Assembly: GCA_050952645.1 (NCBI GenBank)
Contig: JBMNLI010000012.1
Coordinates: 160,001 to 224,000, forward strand
Direction of reading: 5' to 3'
DNA length: 64,000 bases
Origin: Bdellovibrionota bacterium
GTDB taxonomy: Bacteria; Bdellovibrionota_C; UBA2361; CAKMMH01
Part shown: one piece after another, positions 4,237-63,110 of the stretch
How positions within the stretch are numbered: position 1 is the stretch's first letter
Layout: each line of letters opens with the position of its first letter
The notes under the pieces: generated by a model
Told to the model about the DNA's origin: nothing
Seen by the model: only the letters and a program-made list of their open reading frames with translations
Database searches by the model: none
Translations under genes and position numbers: made by a program

Positions 4237-4316
4237 GTTTTTTGTATTTTAAAGAGGGTTTAAGTTAATTCTCCTAAAAAAAAGATTTTTTAAACCTGTT
4301 TAAAATACACGAGAAC
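4237..4316. repeat. Diverged short copy of the long-hairpin repeat family
   Basis: GTTTTTTGTATTTTAAAGAGGGTTTAAG...TTTAAACCTGTTTAAAATACACGAGAAC is an inverted repeat. Its 5' half resembles 60189-60230. Confidence 0.5.
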
Positions 4317-18085: not shown

Positions 18086-18288
18086 TTTTTTACTTTTCAT
18101 ATTTTGCTTAATTTTATTAGAAAGAGGGCAACTTGTTTTTTAGCTTAAAAGAAAATTTTTGCTTTAACTAAAGGAGTTTTCTTTGTTATTATTTAGTCCT
18201 TAATAAAGTAAAATTTTCTTTTAAGTTATCACGATAAAGCGGTTTTTTTAAAGCTACTCTTAAAACGCATTGAAAAAGCGAAAAATTT

Positions 18289-20198: not shown

Positions 20199-21075
20199 AT
20201 GGTATTATCAAAAATAAAGTTTTGGTTTAGAGCCGCAAGAGGCTATTCACTTCCGATGAGTGCTTTAAGTTTTTTAGTAGTGTTCGTTTGGTGCTTAAAA
20301 CTTAAAGGGAATGCTATTTATGGTCTATTTTCACTTATCGGGATAGTTTTTTCACATCTAGGCACGAATCTTTTCGATGATTTTATAGATTTTAAAAATA
20401 ATATTTCTAAGCAAGATGTTGAGAGAGTCTATTTTGAAGAAGCAAATATTTCATTAAAAACGATTTTTTTTGCGTCTTTTTTATGCTTTTCTATCGCCGT
20501 ATTTATCGGATTGTTTTTCGTTATAAAAATAGGTTTTTTAGTTTTAGTAATAAGTTTACTTACTGGAATGTTATGCCTTTTATACCCTAAATTAAACCAC
20601 TATTCGTTTGGAGAGATAGCGATTTTTTTTAATCTTTGGTCCTAATATATTTTATGGTGTAAGCTTAGTTATGGGAGTGCCATTTAGTAGAGAGTTAATG
20701 ATGATTTCAGTGCTAGTAGGTATTCTTACAGTAGTATTGCTTTTATCGCATGCTTTTATGGACTTTGATAGCGATAAAAAAAATAACAAGAAAACGCTTC
20801 TAGTTCGTTTGAAAACTAAAGAGCGAGCATTGAATTTTTTATTTTTGTTAGTTTTTATATCTTACGTGCTAATTTTTTTGTTAGTCTATTTTAAGATAAT
20901 ATCTTGCGTAGGGTTAATCGCAATTTTTACATTGCCTATGGTCTATAGGCTTTATACTTATTTAAAAGAATATATAAAAAATCCTTTGCCTAATGTGTTT
21001 TTAAGAAATTTTAAATTAGCTAGAAACTTAGTATCAAGTTTAGATGTAATTTTAGCGATAGCCATTATTTTTTAG
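20199..21075 (+). pseudogene. menA: UbiA-family prenyltransferase, MenA-like, split by one +1 frameshift (probably a sequencing error)
   Basis: NLFDDFIDF and DFDSDKKNNKKTL Asp motifs. Removing one T in the T8 run at 20623-20630 joins the two ORFs as GEIAIFLIFGP. Divergent from the polyprenyl synthase. Confidence 0.75.
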
Positions 21076-21278
21076 GCTGTTATTTTTTAAGTAGGTATTT
21101 TTTAAGTAGGTATTTTTTAAGTAAGTGTTTTAAAAATAAATATTTTTAAAGTAGAAAGAAAAAAGTAGAGAAACAAAAATAAAACAACAAATAAAACAAT
21201 AAATAAAATAATTAAGAAATAATCAAAGAGAGAATAGGAGAGAAAAAGAAAAAGAAATAAGAAAGAAAAAAGAAAAAA

Positions 21279-22624: not shown

Positions 22625-22740
22625 AAGTTTAGAAAAAAAAGTTTTAGAAAAAGAAGTTTTAGAAAAAGAAGTTTTAGAAAAAGAAGTTTTAGAAAAAGAA
22701 GTTTAGAAAAAGAAGTTTAGAAAAAGAAGTTTAGAAAAAG
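22625..22740 (+). repeat. Tandem repeat, 8 copies of a 14-15 bp unit AAGTTT(T)AGAAAAAG
   Basis: One degenerate unit, four 15-bp units and three 14-bp units, ending 11 bp before the next ATG. Confidence 0.9.
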
Positions 22741-22751
22741 GAATTTTGTAA

Positions 22752-23375
22752 ATGAAAAAAATATCATCAGAACTAATAAAAAACAGATTATCAATTTTTA
22801 TTTTAATTATTTTAGCGTCAAATTTTTTAATTTCTTGCACACCGAGTTTAGAAAATTCATTAAATATTAATGCTATTAGTGCGCCTAAAAAAGAAGAATC
22901 TAAAATAAAAAATGTTTACAAAAGCACGGTAAAACCAAGAGTTAGAGTGGGCATAGTAAACGATGTTAGAAATCATAAAATAGTAGGAGAAATGCACGGA
23001 CGCTCTTATACAGAGGCGCAAGATAGCACAAAGATTATTCAAATGGGAATAGAAAAATATTTTAATGATAATGATTACGACGTAGTGTTATTTAATGCCC
23101 CAACGATAGTAGGGGAGCTACACAATTGGATGGTTTACATCAATCCAAAAACTTTTACTAATAAGGTCGAAGCAAAAACGGAGGTTATTTTATCTCTTTT
23201 AGATAGAAAAGGCAGAGTAATATATCGCTCGATTTATTCTGGAAGTTATGGCGAAACTGGAATGTTTTTCTCTCAAGCAGATATAGAAAGAACGTTAACT
23301 TACGCTATGCACTACGCTTTAAGGGGCGCTAGTAATGATGCTAGAATGAGGCAGCTTATTAGGGAAAATCAATAA
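22752..23375 (+). CDS. Putative lipoprotein (YajG-like fold possible)
   Basis: Signal peptide with lipobox LISC and a V.DVR motif. Confidence 0.65.
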   Translation: MKKISSELIKNRLSIFILIILASNFLISCTPSLENSLNINAISAPKKEESKIKNVYKSTVKPRVRVGIVNDVRNHKIVGEMHGRSYTEAQDSTKIIQMGIEKYFNDNDYDVVLFNAPTIVGELHNWMVYINPKTFTNKVEAKTEVILSLLDRKGRVIYRSIYSGSYGETGMFFSQADIERTLTYAMHYALRGASNDARMRQLIRENQ

Positions 23376-24636: not shown

Positions 24637-24645
24637 AAGTTTTGG

Positions 24646-24670
24646 GTTCTTCACGTTTTGGGTGGGGGTG
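24646..24670. repeat. Isolated end of the long-hairpin repeat family
   Basis: GTTCTTCACGTTTTGGGTGGGGG matches the family terminus. Confidence 0.5.
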
Positions 24671-26053: not shown

Positions 26054-27295
26054 ATGGTAGAGTTTACAAATCAAAAATTAAGTAGTGGTTTAGATGTAGT
26101 ATTAGAATACAATCCCGATTGTTCTTCGTGCGCCGTAGGTTATTTTGTAAAGGCTGGTTCGAGAAATGAGACGATAAAAATTGCTGGCATCTCTCATTTT
26201 CTAGAGCATATGTCATTTAAGGGAACTAGCAATAGGAGCGCAGCGGATATAAGTTTTGATATGGGAAGTTTAGGGGCAAGAGCTAATGCTTTTACATCGG
26301 AAGAGTTCACGGTTTATTATGGCGCTGTGATTCCTGAGAATCTTGTTGCTTTTTTAGATATTTTAACGGATATGCAAAAGCCTCTTTTCGATAAAAAAGA
26401 GTTCGACCTTGAAAAGCAAGTTATATTAGAAGAGATAGCTTTATATAAAGATGTGCCTGAGGTAGATTTACTAGATTTATCTTACCAAAATTTTTTTACA
26501 GACCATCCTATGGGAAACTCGGTTATAGGGACTAGTGAAACTATAAAGGGTGTGCAGGTAGAGGATATGAAAGCCTATCACGCCTCTTTATATGCGTGTA
26601 ATAATGTAGTTCTTGCAGTAGCTGGAAATTTTGATAGAAAGGCGCTAGAAGATTATATAGAAACTGCTCAAAGCAGGTTAAATCCGCCTAGTAATATAGT
26701 TCATCCTAAAAAAGCTTTTAAGCCGATTAAGAAAGAGAGAGTGTTTGTTAAAAATAATCTTACTCAAGCTCATAGTTTATTTTTAGTAAACGGTGCGTCT
26801 GTTTACGATGATGATAAGTATGAGCTTAGCGTGCTAGCAAATATTATAGGCGATAGCACTGGGTCTAAATTATACTGGGAGCTTCTTTATCAAGGAATTT
26901 GTGAAGATGTGTCGGTTTATAGCGACGAGCGGCTTGATGGTGGAGCCATTGTATTTTACGCATCATCGACTAGAGAAAACCAAGAAAAAGTAAAACAAGC
27001 TTTATTAAAGCATATAAATTCCCTAGATGATTTTACAGATGAAGAGCTAGAGAGGGCTAAAACTAAGATTATGTCTAATATCACGTTTAGCTCTGAAACT
27101 CCATTTTCTAGACTCGTTTCTCTTGGAACTCACTACCATTTCTTAAAAGAAGAGCATAATGTAAATAAGATAATCGAGCGAATAAGGAAAATTACTAAAA
27201 ATGATGTTAAAAGGGCTATATCTAAATTAGATTTAGAAAATATTGGAAGTTATAGCATGGTAGGAGATAGTCTAGAGGGCAGTATAGAGGGATAG
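26054..27295 (+). CDS. M16 family zinc peptidase, catalytic subunit
   Basis: GSRNE, HFLEHMSFKGT, NAFT and EKQVILEE motifs. Confidence 0.92.
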   Translation: MVEFTNQKLSSGLDVVLEYNPDCSSCAVGYFVKAGSRNETIKIAGISHFLEHMSFKGTSNRSAADISFDMGSLGARANAFTSEEFTVYYGAVIPENLVAFLDILTDMQKPLFDKKEFDLEKQVILEEIALYKDVPEVDLLDLSYQNFFTDHPMGNSVIGTSETIKGVQVEDMKAYHASLYACNNVVLAVAGNFDRKALEDYIETAQSRLNPPSNIVHPKKAFKPIKKERVFVKNNLTQAHSLFLVNGASVYDDDKYELSVLANIIGDSTGSKLYWELLYQGICEDVSVYSDERLDGGAIVFYASSTRENQEKVKQALLKHINSLDDFTDEELERAKTKIMSNITFSSETPFSRLVSLGTHYHFLKEEHNVNKIIERIRKITKNDVKRAISKLDLENIGSYSMVGDSLEGSIEG

Positions 27296-27769
27296 TAATT
27301 TTAAGGTTTTAACACACCTTTAAACGTGAAGAACTATTTTGGTTCTTTGACGTTTTAGGTGGGTTAGAAAAATTGTTTTTGGAGGTTAGCTTAAAAGAAA
27401 GTTGACTTTTATATAAAACTAACTATAGTTTAAAAAAAATTACAGCTATATTTAAAGTCAATTTTCTTTTAGGCTTCGTGAGTGAGTGATACTAATTTTT
27501 AAGGTTTTAACACGCCTTTAAACGTGAAGAACTATTTTGGTTCTTTGACGTTTTAGGTGGGTTAGAAAAATTGTTTTTAGAGGTTAGCTTAAAAGAAAAT
27601 TGACTTTTATATAAAACTAACTATAGTTTAAAAAAAATTACAGCTATATTTAAAGTCAATTTATTTTATGCAAATTCCTTTAAAGTTGTTAAAGTCAATT
27701 TTCTTTTAGGCTTCGTGGGTGAGTGATACTAATTTTTAAGGTTTTAACACACCTTCAACGGTAAAGAAA
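27296..27769 (+). repeat. Head-to-tail array of the long-hairpin repeat (half copy plus two full copies, 198-bp period)
   Basis: Right half 27296-27334; copy A 27342-27532; copy B 27540-27769 with an insertion of about 39 bp. Identical TATTTTG linkers separate the units. Confidence 0.9.
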
Positions 27770-27914
27770 GATTTTTTTTAAGAAAATTATAAGCAGTTTT
27801 GTTAATAATGCAGATAAATATATGTCGTAACCTTGAAATACGCTTGATAATACGATTGTGTTTTAAAGGTTTTACTAAAGGAACATCTCTTTTTGCATAG
27901 AAAGGAAACAAGAG

Positions 27915-28496
27915 ATGAGAAATGCGTTGCATATTAAGGCGATTTTCATTGTTCAACGAAGATGTTCTTCGGGGAAAGTACGAGAAGAATTTGTGTCAGT
28001 GCGAATCGTTATGGAGTATGACGGAAATTCTTCTAATGATGCTGTTATACAATTTGTTTAAAAGGTGTATCCTAAAGCAGAGCTTTGCTATGTTTCGATT
28101 CAATTTGGACTTTGTGAAGACTATATACAATTTAGCTCTAAGTTTGAACCCATTGAAATCTTTAAAAAAGATGATGTTGACGAAAGTCCTCTAGAAAAAG
28201 CGCTTGAAAGTTTCGATGAATCAATAAAATCCCAAGCTTATTATCTGGATTGTCGTAGGGTCGAGTTATGGCGTTGGCAGCGTATAGCGAAAAGCTCGTT
28301 TTTAGAACAATTTCATAATATTGTAATAATCGCATCTTCAGCTAGTCTCGGAATAGAAAATTTCTCAGAATGCGGTTCTCTACTATTCCCAAAAGAAAAA
28401 TTTGATGATTTATTGTTGCACGAATGTTTATATGACTTAAATTCTGGCTTTTCTTTAGGGCTAGCTCACCCTTACTTTTTTGGATCTCCTGACTAA
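27915..28496 (+). pseudogene. Hypothetical gene interrupted by an in-frame TAA
   Basis: AAAGGA RBS, then ATG 27915 reads MRNALHIKAIF...VIQFV*KVYPKAEL. TAA at 28059-28061 is in the same frame as ORF 28065-28496. Confidence 0.55.
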
Positions 28497-28532
28497 ACGG
28501 TAGCGCACCGATTTAAGCCTAAGTCTAACTCT

Positions 28533-28566
28533 AAAGGGGCGAACGCTTTAGCCGTTCGCCCCTTTT
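28533..28566 (+). terminator. Strong GC-rich hairpin terminator
   Basis: AAAGGGGCGAACG-CTTTAGC-CGTTCGCCCCTTT forms a perfect 13-bp stem. Confidence 0.75.
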
Positions 28567-28772
28567 AGGAGTTCTTTGTTTACTTTAGGTAGGCTTATTT
28601 TAGTTTTCTTGCGTTTAAATAAAGGCTCTAGAAGCAGTATCTTTTTGAGGTTACGACTTTTTTTTTAATCAAAATTTTTTTTTAGCCAAGATTTTGTCAT
28701 TTATTAAATAGAAAAAACATTATTATAACTCTTAACTTATCAAAATCATTATATAAATAAATTTTACCCTAC

Positions 28773-28789
28773 TTGGTATATTCTTTGCA
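28773..28789 (+). promoter_or_regulatory. Sigma54 (-24/-12) promoter of the flhB operon
   Basis: TTGGTATATTCTTTGCA has exact GG-N10-GC spacing; the same motif precedes fliK. Confidence 0.7.
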
Positions 28790-28828
28790 GAATATTCTAG
28801 TTGTATCTTAAAGTGTCAAAAAAATTTA

Positions 28829-28940
28829 GTTCTTTCACGTTTTAAGTGGGTTAGGAAAATAGTTTCTTTTTTAGGGGCTTTGTGGAGAGGTTGGACTAAT
28901 TTTAAAACTAACTTAAAACCCACCTTAAAACGTAAAGAAC
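28829..28940 (+). repeat. Full short copy of the long-hairpin repeat in the flhB leader
   Basis: GTTCTTTCACGTTTTAAGTGGGTT...AACCCACCTTAAAACGTAAAGAAC, with the internal GGCTTTGTG...ACTAATTTT motif. Confidence 0.8.
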
Positions 28941-29020
28941 AAAAAAAATTTTGTTTCTGTATTTTACTTTTGTTTTATTTTGCTTTTATTTAAAGGTATT
29001 TAAAGGGATTTATATAGACT

Positions 29021-36603: not shown

Positions 36604-36841
36604 GTTCTATAACGTTTTAAAGAGATTCTTAACAAAAAAATTTATTCTAAGGCTTTAGCTTAAAAATTAATCTACTTTATTTTAGGTTAAGTTAAATAAA
36701 GATTTTTTTTGCTTATTATATTCTGTTTATTACGTTTTATTTATTTATTACGTTTATTTATATTTTTATTTATTGGCAATTTTTCTTTTAGGTTCTGCTT
36801 ATGCGTGATATACAGTTTAAATCGCCTTAAAATGTAAGAAC
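36604..36841 (+). repeat. Degenerate full-length copy of the long-hairpin repeat upstream of metK
   Basis: GTTCTATAACGTTTTAAAGAG...TTAGCTTAAAA...CAATTTTTCTTTTAGG...GTGATA...CGCCTTAAAATGTAAGAAC aligns with copy A. Confidence 0.65.
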
Positions 36842-37035
36842 TAATTTTAATATTTAGTAGTTTACTACATTAAATATTTTTAACAATAAATCGCATTTTG
36901 TTTTAAATATAACATTTTCTTTTTAAGTGTATTCTATAATAAAAGTTTATAATAAAAGTCTATAATAAAAATTATGATGAAGTCTTAAAATAAAAACACG
37001 TTCTATAATAACCTTAACTTTGCAAAAAAGTTCAC

Positions 37036-38724
37036 CTAAAATTTTTTTTGTAATTTTTTATTTATTTGAGCAGCTTTTAATCTTACCTTATCAGCATCTA
37101 TATCAAACGCATTTAATATAGTTTTTTGTCTTTTGCTTACTGCATAGCTCAGCTGATATAAATCCTTACTCCCTCTTACCATTTCAATTTTTTCAAGTTC
37201 TTTTAATGCGGCAGGAACATTCATATAGTTTGGCTTTTTTGTTAGCTTAGAAAGTTCTTCATTAAGTAGAATATAAATGCGATTGCGAATTATAAGTGCT
37301 ATAAACTCTATAAAAATTTTAGCAGATACTGCCTGAGATGAATGAACTCTCATACTTTTTGAGCCTAAAAAAGTCTTATCAATAGCAAAAAGTTTCTCAG
37401 TTGCGTCTCTACCCTTGTAAAGTATTATAGCTTCTTTAGCACTCATTTCTTCCGAACTAACAAGACAAAAATACCCACATAAATTAAGAGCCTTTTGAAT
37501 TTCATCTGCTCTCTCTTCTACTTTTCTTAACTTTCCTTGATTGTCATAACTTAAATCAAAAAATTGCTTATACGTTTGTCCAAACTTTGTATCTTTGCCA
37601 ATATGGTTTTTTAAAAATTGTTCAAACTCCTCTAATTTAATTTCTAGTTGCTCCCTCTCAAATGCTTGCTTTTCCGCACTAAAATAAACATGAAAATAAC
37701 GCTCCTTACTATCATCATCATATAATTTTGATTTCACTGTAGTGCCATATACCTTGTATAAGCGAATACTACAGTCTCTTTTAGACTCAAATGTATTCCT
37801 GTTTTCTTCTACTAATTTAGAAACTAAAGCCTTACACCCTTTTACCATCAATAAAAAAGAAAAACCACTATTATCCATATATTGAATATTATATTTACTA
37901 AAATAACCACGGTCTAAAATAAATCCTATCTTTTTATATCCATACTCTATAACCTTATCTGCCATATGAGTAAATTGAGAAACGTCTGTAATAGAACCAG
38001 GATACTCTTCGTAAAATAACGGAACTCTATTCGTTTGATCAAAGGCAATGGATAAATTAAATACTGGGAATCCTTTTTCGTCTTTCGCTTTACCAAACTC
38101 TACTAATTCAACATCACCTGCTTGACAGTTCTTATTAGTCGAATCATATGAAACGTAAACCATTTGATTGCGATCTTTTCCCTTGTTCCAATCGTCAAGA
38201 AAGTTAATTATCTGCTCTTTGCTAACAGAAGAAAGAAAACGACTTATGGTAGAATCACTATAGATGCGCATACCTTTTGTAAAGAGTGGATGAGAAAAGG
38301 CGTAGTCTGGATAATACTGACTGACATTCTCTTCATTTACAATAAAATAACTCGCTAAATCAAGTATAAGTTCACTACGTTCACCAAAATGTTTTTTTAG
38401 TAAAAAAGGCAAATTAAATTCATTTGCTACTTTTTCAATCACCAAGTGGGGACCTATACGAAGACAACAACTGCGTGAAGCGTCTGAAAATTTCTCGGGC
38501 ATAGGGGCATCTGGAAAATAATTACTATAATTGTCATTAGGGTACATAATATCATCTCTACCATCAACTAATTTTCCAATAACGCTACGCTTTGGATTAG
38601 TATACTGTTTCTCTTTATTATAAGTGCGATCGTATTCAAAAAGCACATATTTTGCTTCCCCTTTTTCTCTTATAATTATTTTATTTCTTTGCTCTGGTAA
38701 TGGAACTGTTCGATTGTAATTCAT
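37036..38724 (-). CDS. DDE transposase, IS1634-like
   Basis: YDSTN, YPGSITD, LDRGYFS and Y-x2-R-x3-E-x2-F-x3-K motifs; 562 aa; AAGGAGG RBS. Confidence 0.92.
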   Translation of the reverse strand: MNYNRTVPLPEQRNKIIIREKGEAKYVLFEYDRTYNKEKQYTNPKRSVIGKLVDGRDDIMYPNDNYSNYFPDAPMPEKFSDASRSCCLRIGPHLVIEKVANEFNLPFLLKKHFGERSELILDLASYFIVNEENVSQYYPDYAFSHPLFTKGMRIYSDSTISRFLSSVSKEQIINFLDDWNKGKDRNQMVYVSYDSTNKNCQAGDVELVEFGKAKDEKGFPVFNLSIAFDQTNRVPLFYEEYPGSITDVSQFTHMADKVIEYGYKKIGFILDRGYFSKYNIQYMDNSGFSFLLMVKGCKALVSKLVEENRNTFESKRDCSIRLYKVYGTTVKSKLYDDDSKERYFHVYFSAEKQAFEREQLEIKLEEFEQFLKNHIGKDTKFGQTYKQFFDLSYDNQGKLRKVEERADEIQKALNLCGYFCLVSSEEMSAKEAIILYKGRDATEKLFAIDKTFLGSKSMRVHSSQAVSAKIFIEFIALIIRNRIYILLNEELSKLTKKPNYMNVPAALKELEKIEMVRGSKDLYQLSYAVSKRQKTILNAFDIDADKVRLKAAQINKKLQKKF

Positions 38725-38756
38725 AAAACCTCCTTTAGGTTAACGGTTGCACTAAA

Positions 38757-38785
38757 AGTATAGCATAGTAAATACACAGATGCAA
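38757..38785 (-). promoter_or_regulatory. Sigma70 promoter of the transposase
   Basis: TTGCAT-N17-TATACT with an extended TG. Confidence 0.6.
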
Positions 38786-38905
38786 GTAAAAAAATGCATA
38801 ATTTAACGATTATTTCTTATTTATTTTAATTGATTATTTGTTTAGGTGAACTTTTTTGAAAAGTTAAGGAATAATGGCTAATATTTAATATAAAAAAACA
38901 TTTAG

Positions 38906-48809: not shown

Positions 48810-50936
48810 ATGAAAAATAATTTAAAAGTATTTATAAATTTTATTTTAATGTTTTTTCTTTTAGCTTCGAATGCTTTTGCTAGAAACCAAGCGTTTCTAG
48901 TTCCAAAGGCTATGCAAGGGAGAGTAAATTTTTGGGTAGATGTATTTACTAAATATGGAAGACACCACTACGTGCTTCACCATAGGGCGTATCCTCAAGT
49001 AGTTTTTAAGGTGCTAGATTTTAACGTATATGCAAATAGTTTTAGTAAGGCGAGACTTGAAAAGTATAAAGAGCAAGTAAAAAGACAAGAAGTAAATAGA
49101 ATTCTTAATATGGCAAAAGCGTTTAGTTTAGGAAGAAATCCTACTAATAGCTACGAAAAAGAAATTTGGAATAAGCTTATAAATCTTCCTGGAGGTAAGG
49201 CAAATTTTGCGAAACTTTATAAAGAGGATTTAGTAAGAGCGCAAGCAGGTATAAAAGAAGAGTATGGAGAAGCCATAAAACGCTCTGGGCGTTATATAGG
49301 GATCATGGAAAAGATTTTTGTTAATGAGTATAAGCTTCCAATAGAACTTACTAGGCTTCCATTCGTGGAGTCATCCTTTAATTATAAAGCTTATAGCAGC
49401 ATTGGAGCTGCTGGCATTTGGCAATTTATGCGCCGAACTGGTGCATCTATGGGAATGATTATAAATAATGCTGTCGATGAAAGAAAAGACCCAGTAGTGG
49501 CAACTAGAGCGGCTGCAAAGTATTTACGAGCAAATTATAACAAGCTAGGTTCTTGGGGATTAGCGATAACGGCCTACAATCACGGAGCTGCTGGAGTAGC
49601 TAGAAAGGTTAAAGAGTATGGGTCTAGCAATATTTCATATATAGTAGAGCATCCTACAAAAAGGTTATTTGGTTTTGCATCGAACAATTTTTATGCTGAA
49701 TTTTTAGCTGCTCTTGAAGTTTATGAAAATAAGGCAAAGTATTTTCCTAATATAAGACAAGAACCAGCACTCCAATTTCTTCAATATCCTTTAAAATATC
49801 CTATAAAAGTTTCTGAGGTTTCAAGAAGATTAAATGTAAGCGTAGATTTAATACAAAAGTATAATTACGCATTAACTAATAAAACTTTAGCAGGTTATTA
49901 TTTGATTCCTAAGGGCTATAAGATAAAGCTACCTAGTGAGTACGCAAATAGGATAGCGCTTTTAGATGCACCAGATAAATCTGCTAGATATGCTAAAGTG
50001 GCTCCAGCTTGGGAAACTGGGAAACGTTATTACACTGTTAAAAAAGGAGATTCACTAGGGTCTATATCTGCTCGTTTTAATGTTAGAGTATCAACTTTAA
50101 AAAGTTTAAATAATTTAAAATCTGATAAAATTTTTATAGGTCAAAATTTATGTATTAGTAGCGGACACGCTACATCTTTAGGAGATGGAAGACCTACTAG
50201 CCGTGTTAGCTATGTAGTTAAAAAGGGAGATACGTTAAGTGGTATAGCTAAAAAGTTTAAAACTTCTGTTGATAACTTAAAAAGATATAATGGTTTAAAA
50301 AATAGTGTAGTTTACGTAGGGCAAAAGCTTACCGTTTCAGTAGGTTCGCTTAGTGGTAGCTCTTCTAGTAGTTCTTCTAGCATATACGTAGTTAAAAAGG
50401 GAGATACGTTAAGTGGTATAGCTAAAAAGTTTAAAACCTCTGTAGATAACTTAAAAAGATATAATGGTTTAAAAAATAGTGTAGTTTACGTAGGGCAAAA
50501 GCTTAACGTTTCAGTAGGTTCGCTTAGTGGTGGATCTCCTAGTAGCTCTTCTAGTGGAGGAAATGTAGTTAGTGCTTCCTCTAGCGTATACGTAGTTAAG
50601 AAAGGAGATACGTTATTAAGTATCGCTTTAAAATATAAAACGAATGTTCGCTATTTAAAAAGTATAAATAATCTTAGAAGCGATGTGTTAAGTATCGGGC
50701 AGAAATTAAAAGTCCCTACTAACTTAGCTCAAAATGGAGTTAGTAATACTAATAATAACGCTTTAAGAGCGCCTGCAAATAAGCCTTTAAATAAGCCTGT
50801 AAGCTATAAAGTTAAAAAAGGCGATACTCTTTGGGGAATAGCTAAGAGGTATGGGGTATCGGTAGAGAGTATAAAAAAAGCTAATAAAATCGCATCAAGT
50901 GGTATAAAGGTAGGGCAAACGCTAATAGTTAAGTAG
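48810..50936 (+). CDS. MltD-like lytic transglycosylase with five LysM domains
   Basis: SLT motifs VESSF, AAGIWQFM, DERKDP and AYNHG; five Y.VKKGD LysM repeats. Confidence 0.9.
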   Translation: MKNNLKVFINFILMFFLLASNAFARNQAFLVPKAMQGRVNFWVDVFTKYGRHHYVLHHRAYPQVVFKVLDFNVYANSFSKARLEKYKEQVKRQEVNRILNMAKAFSLGRNPTNSYEKEIWNKLINLPGGKANFAKLYKEDLVRAQAGIKEEYGEAIKRSGRYIGIMEKIFVNEYKLPIELTRLPFVESSFNYKAYSSIGAAGIWQFMRRTGASMGMIINNAVDERKDPVVATRAAAKYLRANYNKLGSWGLAITAYNHGAAGVARKVKEYGSSNISYIVEHPTKRLFGFASNNFYAEFLAALEVYENKAKYFPNIRQEPALQFLQYPLKYPIKVSEVSRRLNVSVDLIQKYNYALTNKTLAGYYLIPKGYKIKLPSEYANRIALLDAPDKSARYAKVAPAWETGKRYYTVKKGDSLGSISARFNVRVSTLKSLNNLKSDKIFIGQNLCISSGHATSLGDGRPTSRVSYVVKKGDTLSGIAKKFKTSVDNLKRYNGLKNSVVYVGQKLTVSVGSLSGSSSSSSSSIYVVKKGDTLSGIAKKFKTSVDNLKRYNGLKNSVVYVGQKLNVSVGSLSGGSPSSSSSGGNVVSASSSVYVVKKGDTLLSIALKYKTNVRYLKSINNLRSDVLSIGQKLKVPTNLAQNGVSNTNNNALRAPANKPLNKPVSYKVKKGDTLWGIAKRYGVSVESIKKANKIASSGIKVGQTLIVK
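50214..50561 (+). repeat. Near-identical 174-bp tandem duplication encoding LysM plus Ser linker
   Basis: Units start at 50214 and 50388 and differ by only a few substitutions. Confidence 0.9.
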
Positions 50937-60188: not shown

Positions 60189-60298
60189 GTTCTTCACGTT
60201 TAAAGGAGGTTTTAAGCTAATTTAAAAAAAAAGGAAAAGTTTCTTTTAATGAAGATGAAGTTTTTGAAATTTCTTTAGAGCTTTAAACGCTAAAGAAC
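60189..60298. repeat. Copy of the long-hairpin repeat (reverse orientation) upstream of the PfkB gene
   Basis: Begins GTTCTTCACGTTTAAAGG, the exact reverse complement of the copy A right end, and ends CTTTAAACGCTAAAGAAC. Confidence 0.75.
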
Positions 60299-61744: not shown

Positions 61745-63040
61745 ATGAACGTTTGCCTAAAATCTTTCGAGAATAAAAAAATTCTAATAGTCGATGATGA
61801 AGAAAGCATTAGAAAAATTTTACAAAGCATATTTGAAGATGCAGGTTTCAAAGTTTTCTTAGCAAAAGATGGTGATGAAGCTATAAAACAAGTAGAGGAT
61901 AATAACCCAGATTTAGTATTTTTAGATATATGGATGCCAGGGAAAGATGGGCTTGAAGTTATGGAAATTTTAAAAGAAAAGAGAAAAGATCTTCCTATAA
62001 TTATGATTAGTGGACACGCTACTATCGCTACCGCCGTTAAGGCAACTCAAGAAGGAGCCTTTGATTTTATAGAAAAACCTTTAGATTTAGACTTGATATT
62101 AAACACTGTCGAAAAGGCTTTAAACTCAAAAGGAGATCTCTCTAGAAATGATGCGAAGCTAGAAAATAGAAAAATAAACAATATCGTTTTTCAAAATCAA
62201 GCGATGAAAGGTAAAAAAATCCCACAAAGAACTTTAAAAACGAGTGCAGTTTTATACGGTTTAGGTTTACATTCTGGCAAAAAAACTGGAATCATCTTAG
62301 AGCCACTTCCAGCAAACTCTGGAATCCATTTTGAAGGTATCACAGAAGAGGCTGTAATTCCAGCGCATATAGATTTTGTATCTTCGACAGGATTTGCTAC
62401 AACATTAAAATTAGGAGATAAACAAGTAGCTACCATAGAACATATGATGTCGTCTTTAAGTGCTTATAGAATTTCAAACCTTTTAATAAAATGCAATGGT
62501 GAAGTTCCCGTAATGGACGGCTCATCGATAGAATTTTGCAAACTTATAGAAAATGTAGGTATCGTAGAGCAAGAGGGAGATTGGTATGAAATAAAAATTG
62601 ATGAGACGCTTAAAATAGAAGATGGGCAGAAATCGATAACCGTAGAAAAGGCTGATATACCAAGTATAAAATATATTCTTGAATATCCAGAACCGCTAGG
62701 AAGACAAGAAGTCGAGTTTGTTATGAATGATGTAGAGGTTTATAAAAAAGAAATAGCAACCGCTAGAACGTTTGGTTTTGTAAAGGATATAAATATGCTC
62801 CAAGATAAGGGGCTTGCACAAGGTGGGCAATTTAATAATTTTGTATTATATGGTGGTGAAGGCCCTATAAATTCTGAATTACACTTTAAAGATGAGGCTG
62901 CAAGACATAAAGTTTTAGATGCTATGGGTGATTTGTATTTATTAGGACGCCCAATTTGTGGTAAAATCACGGCCGTAATGACTGGGCATTCGGATAATAT
63001 AAAATTAGTAAAATTATTAAAAGAAAAAATGGAGTGTTAA
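61745..63040 (+). CDS. lpxC: Receiver domain-LpxC fusion (UDP-3-O-acyl-GlcNAc deacetylase with N-terminal REC)
   Basis: REC domain with DD17-18, D61, S89 and K111. LpxC domain with QRTL, GLHSG, TIEH, EVPVMDGSS, ARTFGF, HKVLDAMGD and GH. Confidence 0.92.
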   Translation: MNVCLKSFENKKILIVDDEESIRKILQSIFEDAGFKVFLAKDGDEAIKQVEDNNPDLVFLDIWMPGKDGLEVMEILKEKRKDLPIIMISGHATIATAVKATQEGAFDFIEKPLDLDLILNTVEKALNSKGDLSRNDAKLENRKINNIVFQNQAMKGKKIPQRTLKTSAVLYGLGLHSGKKTGIILEPLPANSGIHFEGITEEAVIPAHIDFVSSTGFATTLKLGDKQVATIEHMMSSLSAYRISNLLIKCNGEVPVMDGSSIEFCKLIENVGIVEQEGDWYEIKIDETLKIEDGQKSITVEKADIPSIKYILEYPEPLGRQEVEFVMNDVEVYKKEIATARTFGFVKDINMLQDKGLAQGGQFNNFVLYGGEGPINSELHFKDEAARHKVLDAMGDLYLLGRPICGKITAVMTGHSDNIKLVKLLKEKMEC

Positions 63041-63110
63041 TTTTCTTTCGGGCTTCGTGTGAAGAACTATTAATTTTTAGAATTTAAAATCACCTTAAAA
63101 CGTCAAAGAA
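63041..63110 (+). repeat. Right half of the long-hairpin repeat between lpxC and mreB
   Basis: TTTTCTTTCGGGCTTCGTG...TAATTTTTAG...CACCTTAAAACGTCAAAGAA. Confidence 0.7.

Follow-up and report, generated by a model that had tools for sequence, protein, structure and literature searches.

MITEs with ISL3-type ends have been described before. According to an excerpt of the published account, Microcystis aeruginosa PCC 7806 carries a 187-nt MITE whose ends start with GGCTCTTCG and match ISL3 ends, which is accompanied by 8-nt duplications and which has been attributed to ISL3-family transposases (PMC11448079). The repeat family analysed here, from a Bdellovibrionota bacterium, resembles the element of that excerpt in being a small non-coding stem-loop, in having ends that start with GGCTCTTC(G/A) and match an ISL3-family IS of the same genome, and in its 8-nt duplications, whereas it has another host phylum and, past the first 9-10 nt, another sequence. 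It also differs from what the excerpt describes in falling into three size classes, of which one derives directly from the IS by deletion, in its strong co-orientation with genes, and in the presence of only one, possibly broken, copy of the IS. The co-transcribed ERIC and Correia/NEMIS elements of enterobacteria and neisseriae, as far as the excerpted accounts go (PMC3184786, PMC10969869), are likewise intergenic, hairpin-forming and often located 3′ of genes, with sigma70-like promoters in some subtypes, but they lack an ISL3 partner, have other ends and duplicate TA or another short target; moreover, their effects on RNA were measured, while here such effects are deduced from orientation and G·U asymmetry alone. 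The kind of MITE is therefore already published, and apart from its siting at 3′ ends and its co-orientation with genes, the present family is one more example of an ordinary element.

The window, by which we mean the whole 64,000-nt stretch of DNA that was analysed, corresponds to G000:C12:160001-224000, that is, to a part of contig C12 in a genome (G000) of 1.95 Mb, 17 contigs and about 31% G+C. A preliminary description, made from the letters of the window, had proposed a dispersed family of long-hairpin repeats that might be abundant genome-wide. When the window copies were compared with the whole genome by blastn, we obtained 140 merged repeat loci with a total of 17.7 kb, and an nhmmer profile iterated on both strands of the whole genome increased its hits from 90 to 200 and then to 231. 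These hits represent 165 non-overlapping loci in 136 clusters and cover 18,269 bp, about 1% of the genome. Full profile length was reached by 28 of the 165 loci, or by 35 under a laxer 3′ limit, and the latter set was used for the identity, covariation and fold counts given below. The 16-mer GGTTCTTCACGTTTTA occurred at 172 sites of the genome with at most 2 mismatches (3 in the reversed genome), and the 16-mer GGYTCTTCACGTTTTA at 123 sites with at most 1 mismatch (1 in the reversed control). The median identity among the long copies was 83%, with a range of 50-99%. By contrast, the loose 15-mer on which the family had been recognized, allowed 2 mismatches and taken alone, gave 7 matches against a shuffle mean of 3.3, and 8 of 100 shuffles reached 7; the significance of the family thus comes from whole-element similarity and the genome-wide census rather than from this 15-mer. 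Taken together, these results show that the dispersed hairpin repeats form a genuine repeat family, with the abundance that had been suspected and with copies in the window that are confirmed by the profile.

The copies are bounded by inverted repeats of about 25 nt, GG(T/C)TCTTCACGTTTTAGGTGGGTT, and full copies start with GG(T/C)TCTTCACGTTTTAGGTGGGTTAG and finish with CCCACCTTAAAACGTGAAGA(G/A)CC. The elements are A/T-rich, the family consensus forms a single long hairpin (-68.9 kcal/mol as RNA), and those window copies that have a strong fold reached z-scores of -4.1 to -4.8. No conserved ORF was seen in the element, in which a short ATG frame varies from copy to copy. We identified 71 paired ends, which fell into size classes of approximately 95-113, 136-170, 195-236 and 262-278 nt, together with one pair of 1860 nt and five identified pairs of 2095-2123 nt. 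Three main size classes make up the family, namely a short form of family A (about 95-113 nt), a long form of family A (about 195-236 nt) and family B (about 262-278 nt), and the IS ends of about 25 nt are common to all of them. An alignment of 14 copies showed that the short form of family A is the long form minus the inner stem-loop; a recurring internal motif, noticed already in the preliminary description, was recovered as real by a direct-repeat search.

The 8-nt flanks of the 71 end pairs were identical at 8/8 positions in 16 pairs and at 7/8 in 13 (29/71 at 7/8 or better), while none of the 71 shifted control flanks reached 6/8. The duplicated 8-mers are almost purely A/T, with an A-rich part first and a T-rich part second, so that the target looks symmetric. 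Two filled sites, C12:89290-89511 and C6:23218-25333, are flanked on both sides by TTTTAATT, whereas five paralogous sites (G000 positions C10:197625-197771, C10:335089-335235, C7:37213-37359, C17:123916-124063 and C17:326523-326669) carry a single TTTTAATT and no element, and what a filled site has in excess of an empty one is exactly the element and a second 8-mer. The empty sites belong to a multicopy host sequence of at least 148 nt, whose identity to the flanks of the filled C12 site, once these are joined, is 92.6-95.9%. With its small size and lack of a coding gene, its inverted ends, a target duplication seen at filled and empty sites, and many copies sharing the ends of an IS, the family is a MITE, in agreement with the earlier supposition of a non-autonomous mobile element.

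Ends of the GGCTCTT type together with an 8-bp duplication suggested the ISL3 family, and an ISL3 transposase was therefore searched for in the genome; we take ends starting with GG(C/T)TCTT and an 8-bp duplication to be the defining features of this family in ISfinder. PF01610 gave a single match in the genome (172.9 bits, E 1.3e-50), and the transposase passed NF033550 (ISL3 family transposase) with 228.7 bits against a cut-off of 180. The corresponding IS of 1860 bp lies at C10:339480-341339, its ends read GGTTCTTCACGTTTTAGGTGGGTTGG and, inverted, GGCTCTTCACGTTTTGGGTGGGTTAG, and it is flanked at both sides by AAAAATTT, an 8-bp duplication; it thus combines an ISL3-type DDE transposase with GG(C/T)TCTT ends and the 8-bp duplication of the ISL3 family. 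One copy of it was assembled in the genome, outside the window. The preliminary description had seen no cognate transposase, which is right for the window, but elsewhere in the genome there is an IS of the ISL3 family that shares the ends and has duplicated 8 bp of its target, and the transposase searches of this 93.75%-complete genome led to this IS and to no RAYT gene. The IS1634-family IS in the window, at about 37011-38870 (NF033559, 251 bits; about 1860 bp long and present in 9 copies with an identity of 99.7% or more), has ends that read CCTTAACTTTGCAAAAAAGTTCACCTAAA and are unlike those of the repeat family, as had been pointed out before.

Family B, of about 262-278 nt, consists of the left end, about 50 nt, followed by the last 220 nt of the ISL3 IS. 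Of the copies of family B, 8 are full and 5 partial; all repeat these last 220 nt at 83-93% identity, and each has the left end; one copy, at L113:123-391 (G000:C7:126422-126690), adjoins a tRNA gene. Family B is a direct deletion derivative of the ISL3 IS. Family A has only about 25 nt at each end in common with the IS; descent is shown directly by family B only, and for family A we infer it. The transposase frame is open for 423 codons, and the N-terminal 32 codons, counted from an ATG, lie in another frame that ends at a stop in an A-run. In homologues the N-terminus is continuous and begins about 45 residues ahead of the CxxC motif. The transposase may truly be inactivated, in which case the partner would be dead, or the frame break may come from an error of assembly. 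Related transposases, which occur in genomes as well as metagenomes of anaerobes, those of gut and rumen among them, were at most about 57% identical over long matches. When metagenomes were scanned with the transposase, the identity of its relatives stayed at or below about 66%, so that no independent copy of this IS came to light. Ends of the form GG[CT]TCTTCACG were present at 67 of 80 metagenome loci of related transposases, and the related loci have GGTTC on the left and GGCTC on the right, the same asymmetry as in the MITE. Overall, we consider the family, with a probability of about 0.88, to be an ISL3-derived MITE that the transposase of the genome's single ISL3-family IS likely moved in trans. 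In the proposed mechanism, the ISL3 transposase would bind the shared ends and make 8-bp staggered cuts in A/T-rich spacers.

The preliminary description had also allowed for a REP-like element or a structured RNA. The copies are palindromic, intergenic and numerous, and some stand in tandem clusters, which would suit a REP/BIME-like family with a RAYT (Y1/HUH) transposase behind its spread; however, they have 8-bp target duplications, their ends equal those of a DDE ISL3 element, and with lengths of 100-225 nt and an A/T-rich composition they are unlike the G+C-rich palindromes of 20-40 nt. Furthermore, PF01797 (Y1_Tnp) had 0 matches in this 93.75%-complete genome, while control genomes were positive. 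We rejected the REP/RAYT origin on the target duplications, the ISL3-type ends and the absence of a Y1 transposase match in the genome, and regard it as exceedingly improbable. If the repeat were unconnected with transposition and were a multicopy gene for a structured non-coding RNA, or else a cis-regulatory RNA, this would account for the strong hairpin folds (z -4 to -4.8) and for a sigma70-like TTGRCW-N16-TATAGT that is found in 26 of the 35 long copies. Sigma70-like promoters are listed for several MITEs in a review (PMC10969869). Nevertheless, the region has 7 promoter-like sites where shuffles have 5.9, which is no excess, and the orientation bias is the same in the short form, from which the promoter-like part is missing. 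No Rfam family was found at threshold, since only a tRNA passes in the window and the element itself gave sub-threshold chance hits; covariation was absent, and insertion is evident from the target duplications and the empty sites. The missing Rfam match, the lack of an excess of compensatory changes and the insertion signatures led us to reject an RNA gene as well, which we hold to be very unlikely. The family is therefore treated below as an ISL3-derived MITE.

Within the window, about nine copies had been claimed. When these were checked with the genome-derived nhmmer profile and the end 16-mer, six held, two were weak (36604-36841 and 60189-60298) and one, at 4237-4316, gave no hit; the 4237-4316 segment, counted as a copy previously, is an 80-nt A/T-rich hairpin with z -4.0. 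Every well-scoring window copy is on the + strand, at variance with the earlier view that both orientations occur in the window. The block 27296-27769 comprises a partial copy and then two nearly full copies, and forms a direct repeat with a 198-nt period and 97% identity. The first unit of this block is a partial family-A MITE with the right end only (27287..27334, + strand; nhmmer hit 27287-27332, model positions 169-215, E 1.9e-6), immediately past the stop of an M16 peptidase gene (26054-27295). It is followed by long-form family-A copy 1 with both inverted ends (27341..27533, + strand; nhmmer hit 27347-27530, E 4.7e-45), which holds the sigma70-like TTGACT-N16-TATAGT at 27402-27429 and is 97% identical to the next tandem unit by direct-repeat search. 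Long-form copy 2 (27539..27770, + strand; nhmmer hit 27545-27767, E 5.8e-56) has a degenerate right end, and its RNA fold is -57.8 kcal/mol (z -4.75). The 6-nt spacer TATTTT is identical at both junctions of the block, indicating that it expanded by tandem duplication, and in one metagenome run (X4) one contig skips 27521-27756, which equals one tandem unit. More arrays of MITE units, with up to 4 units and a period of about 196 nt, were found at C9:42968-43769, C10:104118-104518, C17:71283-71734 and C10:199814-200457, and their presence at several further loci indicates that array formation is recurrent. Tandem arrays of another kind, made of 14-15-nt A/T-rich units, lie at 22628-22754 (7 copies) and 21066-21125 (3 copies), and three direct repeats at 50192-50662, spaced by about 174-204 nt and 74-95% identical, resemble a repeated protein domain.

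A short-form family-A MITE of 114 nt lies at 28828..28941 (+ strand; nhmmer hit 28834-28938, E 5.9e-5 and 1.9e-8), 80 nt 5′ of the flhB start codon, with a fold z-score of -4.09. The spacer between the M16 peptidase gene and flhB, 27770-28830, is a variable island, with a 143-aa ORF at 28065-28496 that has no Pfam match. A partial copy made of the right half (63035..63110, + strand; nhmmer hit 63035-63106, model positions 141-213, E 9.5e-11) begins immediately past a stop codon, and a lone inverted-repeat end, GGTTCTTCACGTTTTGGGTGGGGG, at 24645..24670 (+ strand; 24645-24660 with 1 mismatch to the 16-mer GGYTCTTCACGTTTTA) lies 9 nt 3′ of the stop of a GNAT gene. The weaker copies are a degenerate one at 36604..36841 (+ strand; nhmmer hit 36612-36837, E 1.7e-3, 13 bits, model positions 5-212), which sits between metK and the IS1634-family IS and is probably old, and a very degenerate one at 60189..60298 (no strand assigned; end match E 3.4e-3, exact 15-mer), which is recognisable at its ends only and has a fold no better than shuffles (z -1.68). 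Another weak match is a degenerate remnant at 18129..18267 (- strand; nhmmer hit 18144-18267, E 4.1e-4, 15 bits), in which the inner-stem motif is present but neither end can be recognised; it was absent from the earlier list.

The 2.1-kb class of paired ends represents family-A MITEs split by a group II intron. The intron scored 106.7 bits with Rfam RF02001 and 42.1 bits with RF00029, and its reverse transcriptase passed TIGR04416 with 410 bits. It is present in 10 copies of 1894 nt, 99.7-100% identical, one at L111:482-2375 (G000:C6:23381-25274) and nine others in the same genome, and one copy is cut by an IS1634-family IS at C10:108922-110781. Nine of the ten copies lie in sequence of the MITE family, directly 3′ of the inner stem, after ...TTTTCTTTTRRGC, on either strand of the palindrome: five follow GTCAATTTTCTTTTGGGC on the MITE sense strand, three use the mirror site on the other strand, and one is in a variant MITE. 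The MITE is palindromic and therefore offers the intron site on both strands, both of which are used (5 sense, 3 mirror). The tenth copy is located past a terminator-like hairpin followed by TTTTAGC, and thus each intron site is directly 3′ of a stem. Class C group II introns insert after terminators or directly 3′ of stems, and the RmInt1 group II intron reportedly homes into ISRm2011-2. Like these introns, the one found here inserts into a mobile element or after a hairpin, directly 3′ of a stem, and its behaviour appears IIC-like; it differs from them in that its target is the inner stem of a MITE and not a terminal repeat.

We further studied the position of the copies relative to genes, using crude gene calls (1468 ORFs of at least 100 aa, 81% of the genome). 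As the preliminary description had stated for the window, copies are intergenic: on these calls, 155 of the 165 loci overlapped ORFs by at most 10 nt, 10 overlapped an ORF end partly, and none was inside an ORF. When the 136 clusters were sorted by context and compared with the expectation from spacer length, 93 were in tandem spacers (84 expected), 25 in convergent (20 expected) and 16 in divergent spacers (30 expected). In the tandem contexts, 62 of 93 sites were closer to the upstream stop codon; a distance of at most 30 nt to a stop was found for 33 tandem sites, and to a start for 6. Copies thus favour the 3′ regions of genes and not leaders, where they had been thought often to sit. Counted per cluster, 64 were oriented with their tandem genes and 9 against them (p 2e-11); the remaining clusters of the 136 were non-tandem (34), low-scoring (27) or at contig edges (2). 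The count per hit was 71 co-oriented and 10 opposed. The sign of the local GC skew predicts orientation weakly, and gene direction does so far better.

Such a pattern raises the question of what retains the copies, and on this point only does an exaptation of the hairpins compete with plain transposition, since it is compatible with the MITE origin. The sense transcript would fold at mRNA 3′ ends, where it would stabilise the mRNA, serve in its processing or help termination, and so keep the copies in place. The co-orientation with tandem genes, the placement near stop codons with depletion of divergent spacers, and the closer dependence of orientation on gene direction than on GC-skew sign all argue for it, and so do the folds: the mean RNA fold of the long copies is -59.0 kcal/mol for the sense and -43.8 kcal/mol for the antisense strand, with the sense strand more stable in 35/35. 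Mismatches in the consensus palindrome are 8 G·T and 0 A·C, and private deviations comprise 118 G·T against 64 A·C. In addition, a review reports that many MITEs lie 3′ of genes, are co-transcribed and are able to alter mRNA stability (PMC3184786). However, the copies share ancestry, so that neither the 35/35 result nor the G·T counts can be read as a set of independent events, and the G·T excess could equally come from a transcription-linked C-to-T bias on the non-template strand. Compensatory double changes were not in excess (16 cells against 14-31 in controls), and pair-breaking cells numbered 354; these counts used 35 near-full long copies, HMM match columns and the consensus fold, with partners slid by 1-3 columns as the control, and RNAalifold on a MAFFT alignment gave 8 pairs only. 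No terminator-like site was found, and the siting and orientation counts depend on crude calls of ORFs of at least 100 aa. We therefore put forward the exapted hairpins tentatively, as a doubtful rather than a favoured explanation of copy retention, and selection on the copies at the RNA level is possible at a similarly low degree of confidence.

The distribution of the ISL3-derived MITE outside this genome was narrow. A search of 30 relatives for the element DNA was negative in every case. The 3 genomes of the same family lack the end 16-mer, and 3 more from the order have it once each, which is at the level of chance. When 185,579 species were searched, each represented by one genome and with the genome studied here left aside, a 22-mer end pattern was matched exactly in none. 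For the ISL3 transposase, 3 of the 30 relatives gave weak, distant matches only. A genome of the same genus, G001, keeps the neighbourhood from the M16 peptidase gene to flhB, and in its flhB spacer the conserved upstream block is present and the element absent, with the 3′ part of this spacer misplaced by global alignment. Two different ORFs occupy the M16 peptidase-flhB spacer in G001. A DNA search with the flanks of one filled site against G001 returned only a 131-nt coding match. The comparison of empty and filled sites that had been proposed therefore gave an empty flhB spacer in this relative, readable at flhB only, and target duplications at paralogous sites within the genome itself.

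The species is present in contigs of anaerobic-digester, bioreactor, landfill and wastewater metagenomes. Contigs bridged the flhB-upstream copy in 4/4 metagenome runs from 4 studies; over the window region, contigs of these runs contained no empty site and no insertion polymorphism. The presence of this copy in all 4 runs indicates that the family is not a very recent burst. The distribution and identity data together point to one horizontal arrival of the IS in the lineage, followed by a burst that was not very recent. The IS would have arrived horizontally, considering that the nearest transposases are only about 50% identical and come from anaerobic gut, rumen and digester bacteria, and that the IS and its ends were not found in the 30 relatives. 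Selection would then have retained copies in gene 3′ regions pointing with transcription, where they would be co-transcribed as sense-strand RNA hairpins. In its fullest form, this history would comprise one ISL3 invasion, a burst of MITEs and a genome-wide, strand-specific set of 3′-UTR hairpins, in which the survivors are almost only co-oriented, the imperfections, being G·U pairs, fold only in the sense transcript, and an active group II intron of IIC-like type lands in the inner stem; we offer it as a speculative scenario, less probable than its opposite.

The repeat that the preliminary description left unplaced, which makes up about 1% of the genome, is now explained, and its missing partner is an ISL3 element beyond the window. 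For annotation, the copies should be masked as MITEs and not annotated as small RNAs, and they also explain breaks of short-read contigs. With one IS, one deletion-derived MITE class and two classes that share the ends only, the genome offers a compact natural set for the study of ISL3 trans-mobilisation. The orientation and the G·U asymmetry provide a testable case of RNA-level selection on MITEs in an uncultured anaerobic-digester bacterium, and if such selection is real, the elements would act on mRNA ends, through stability, processing or termination.
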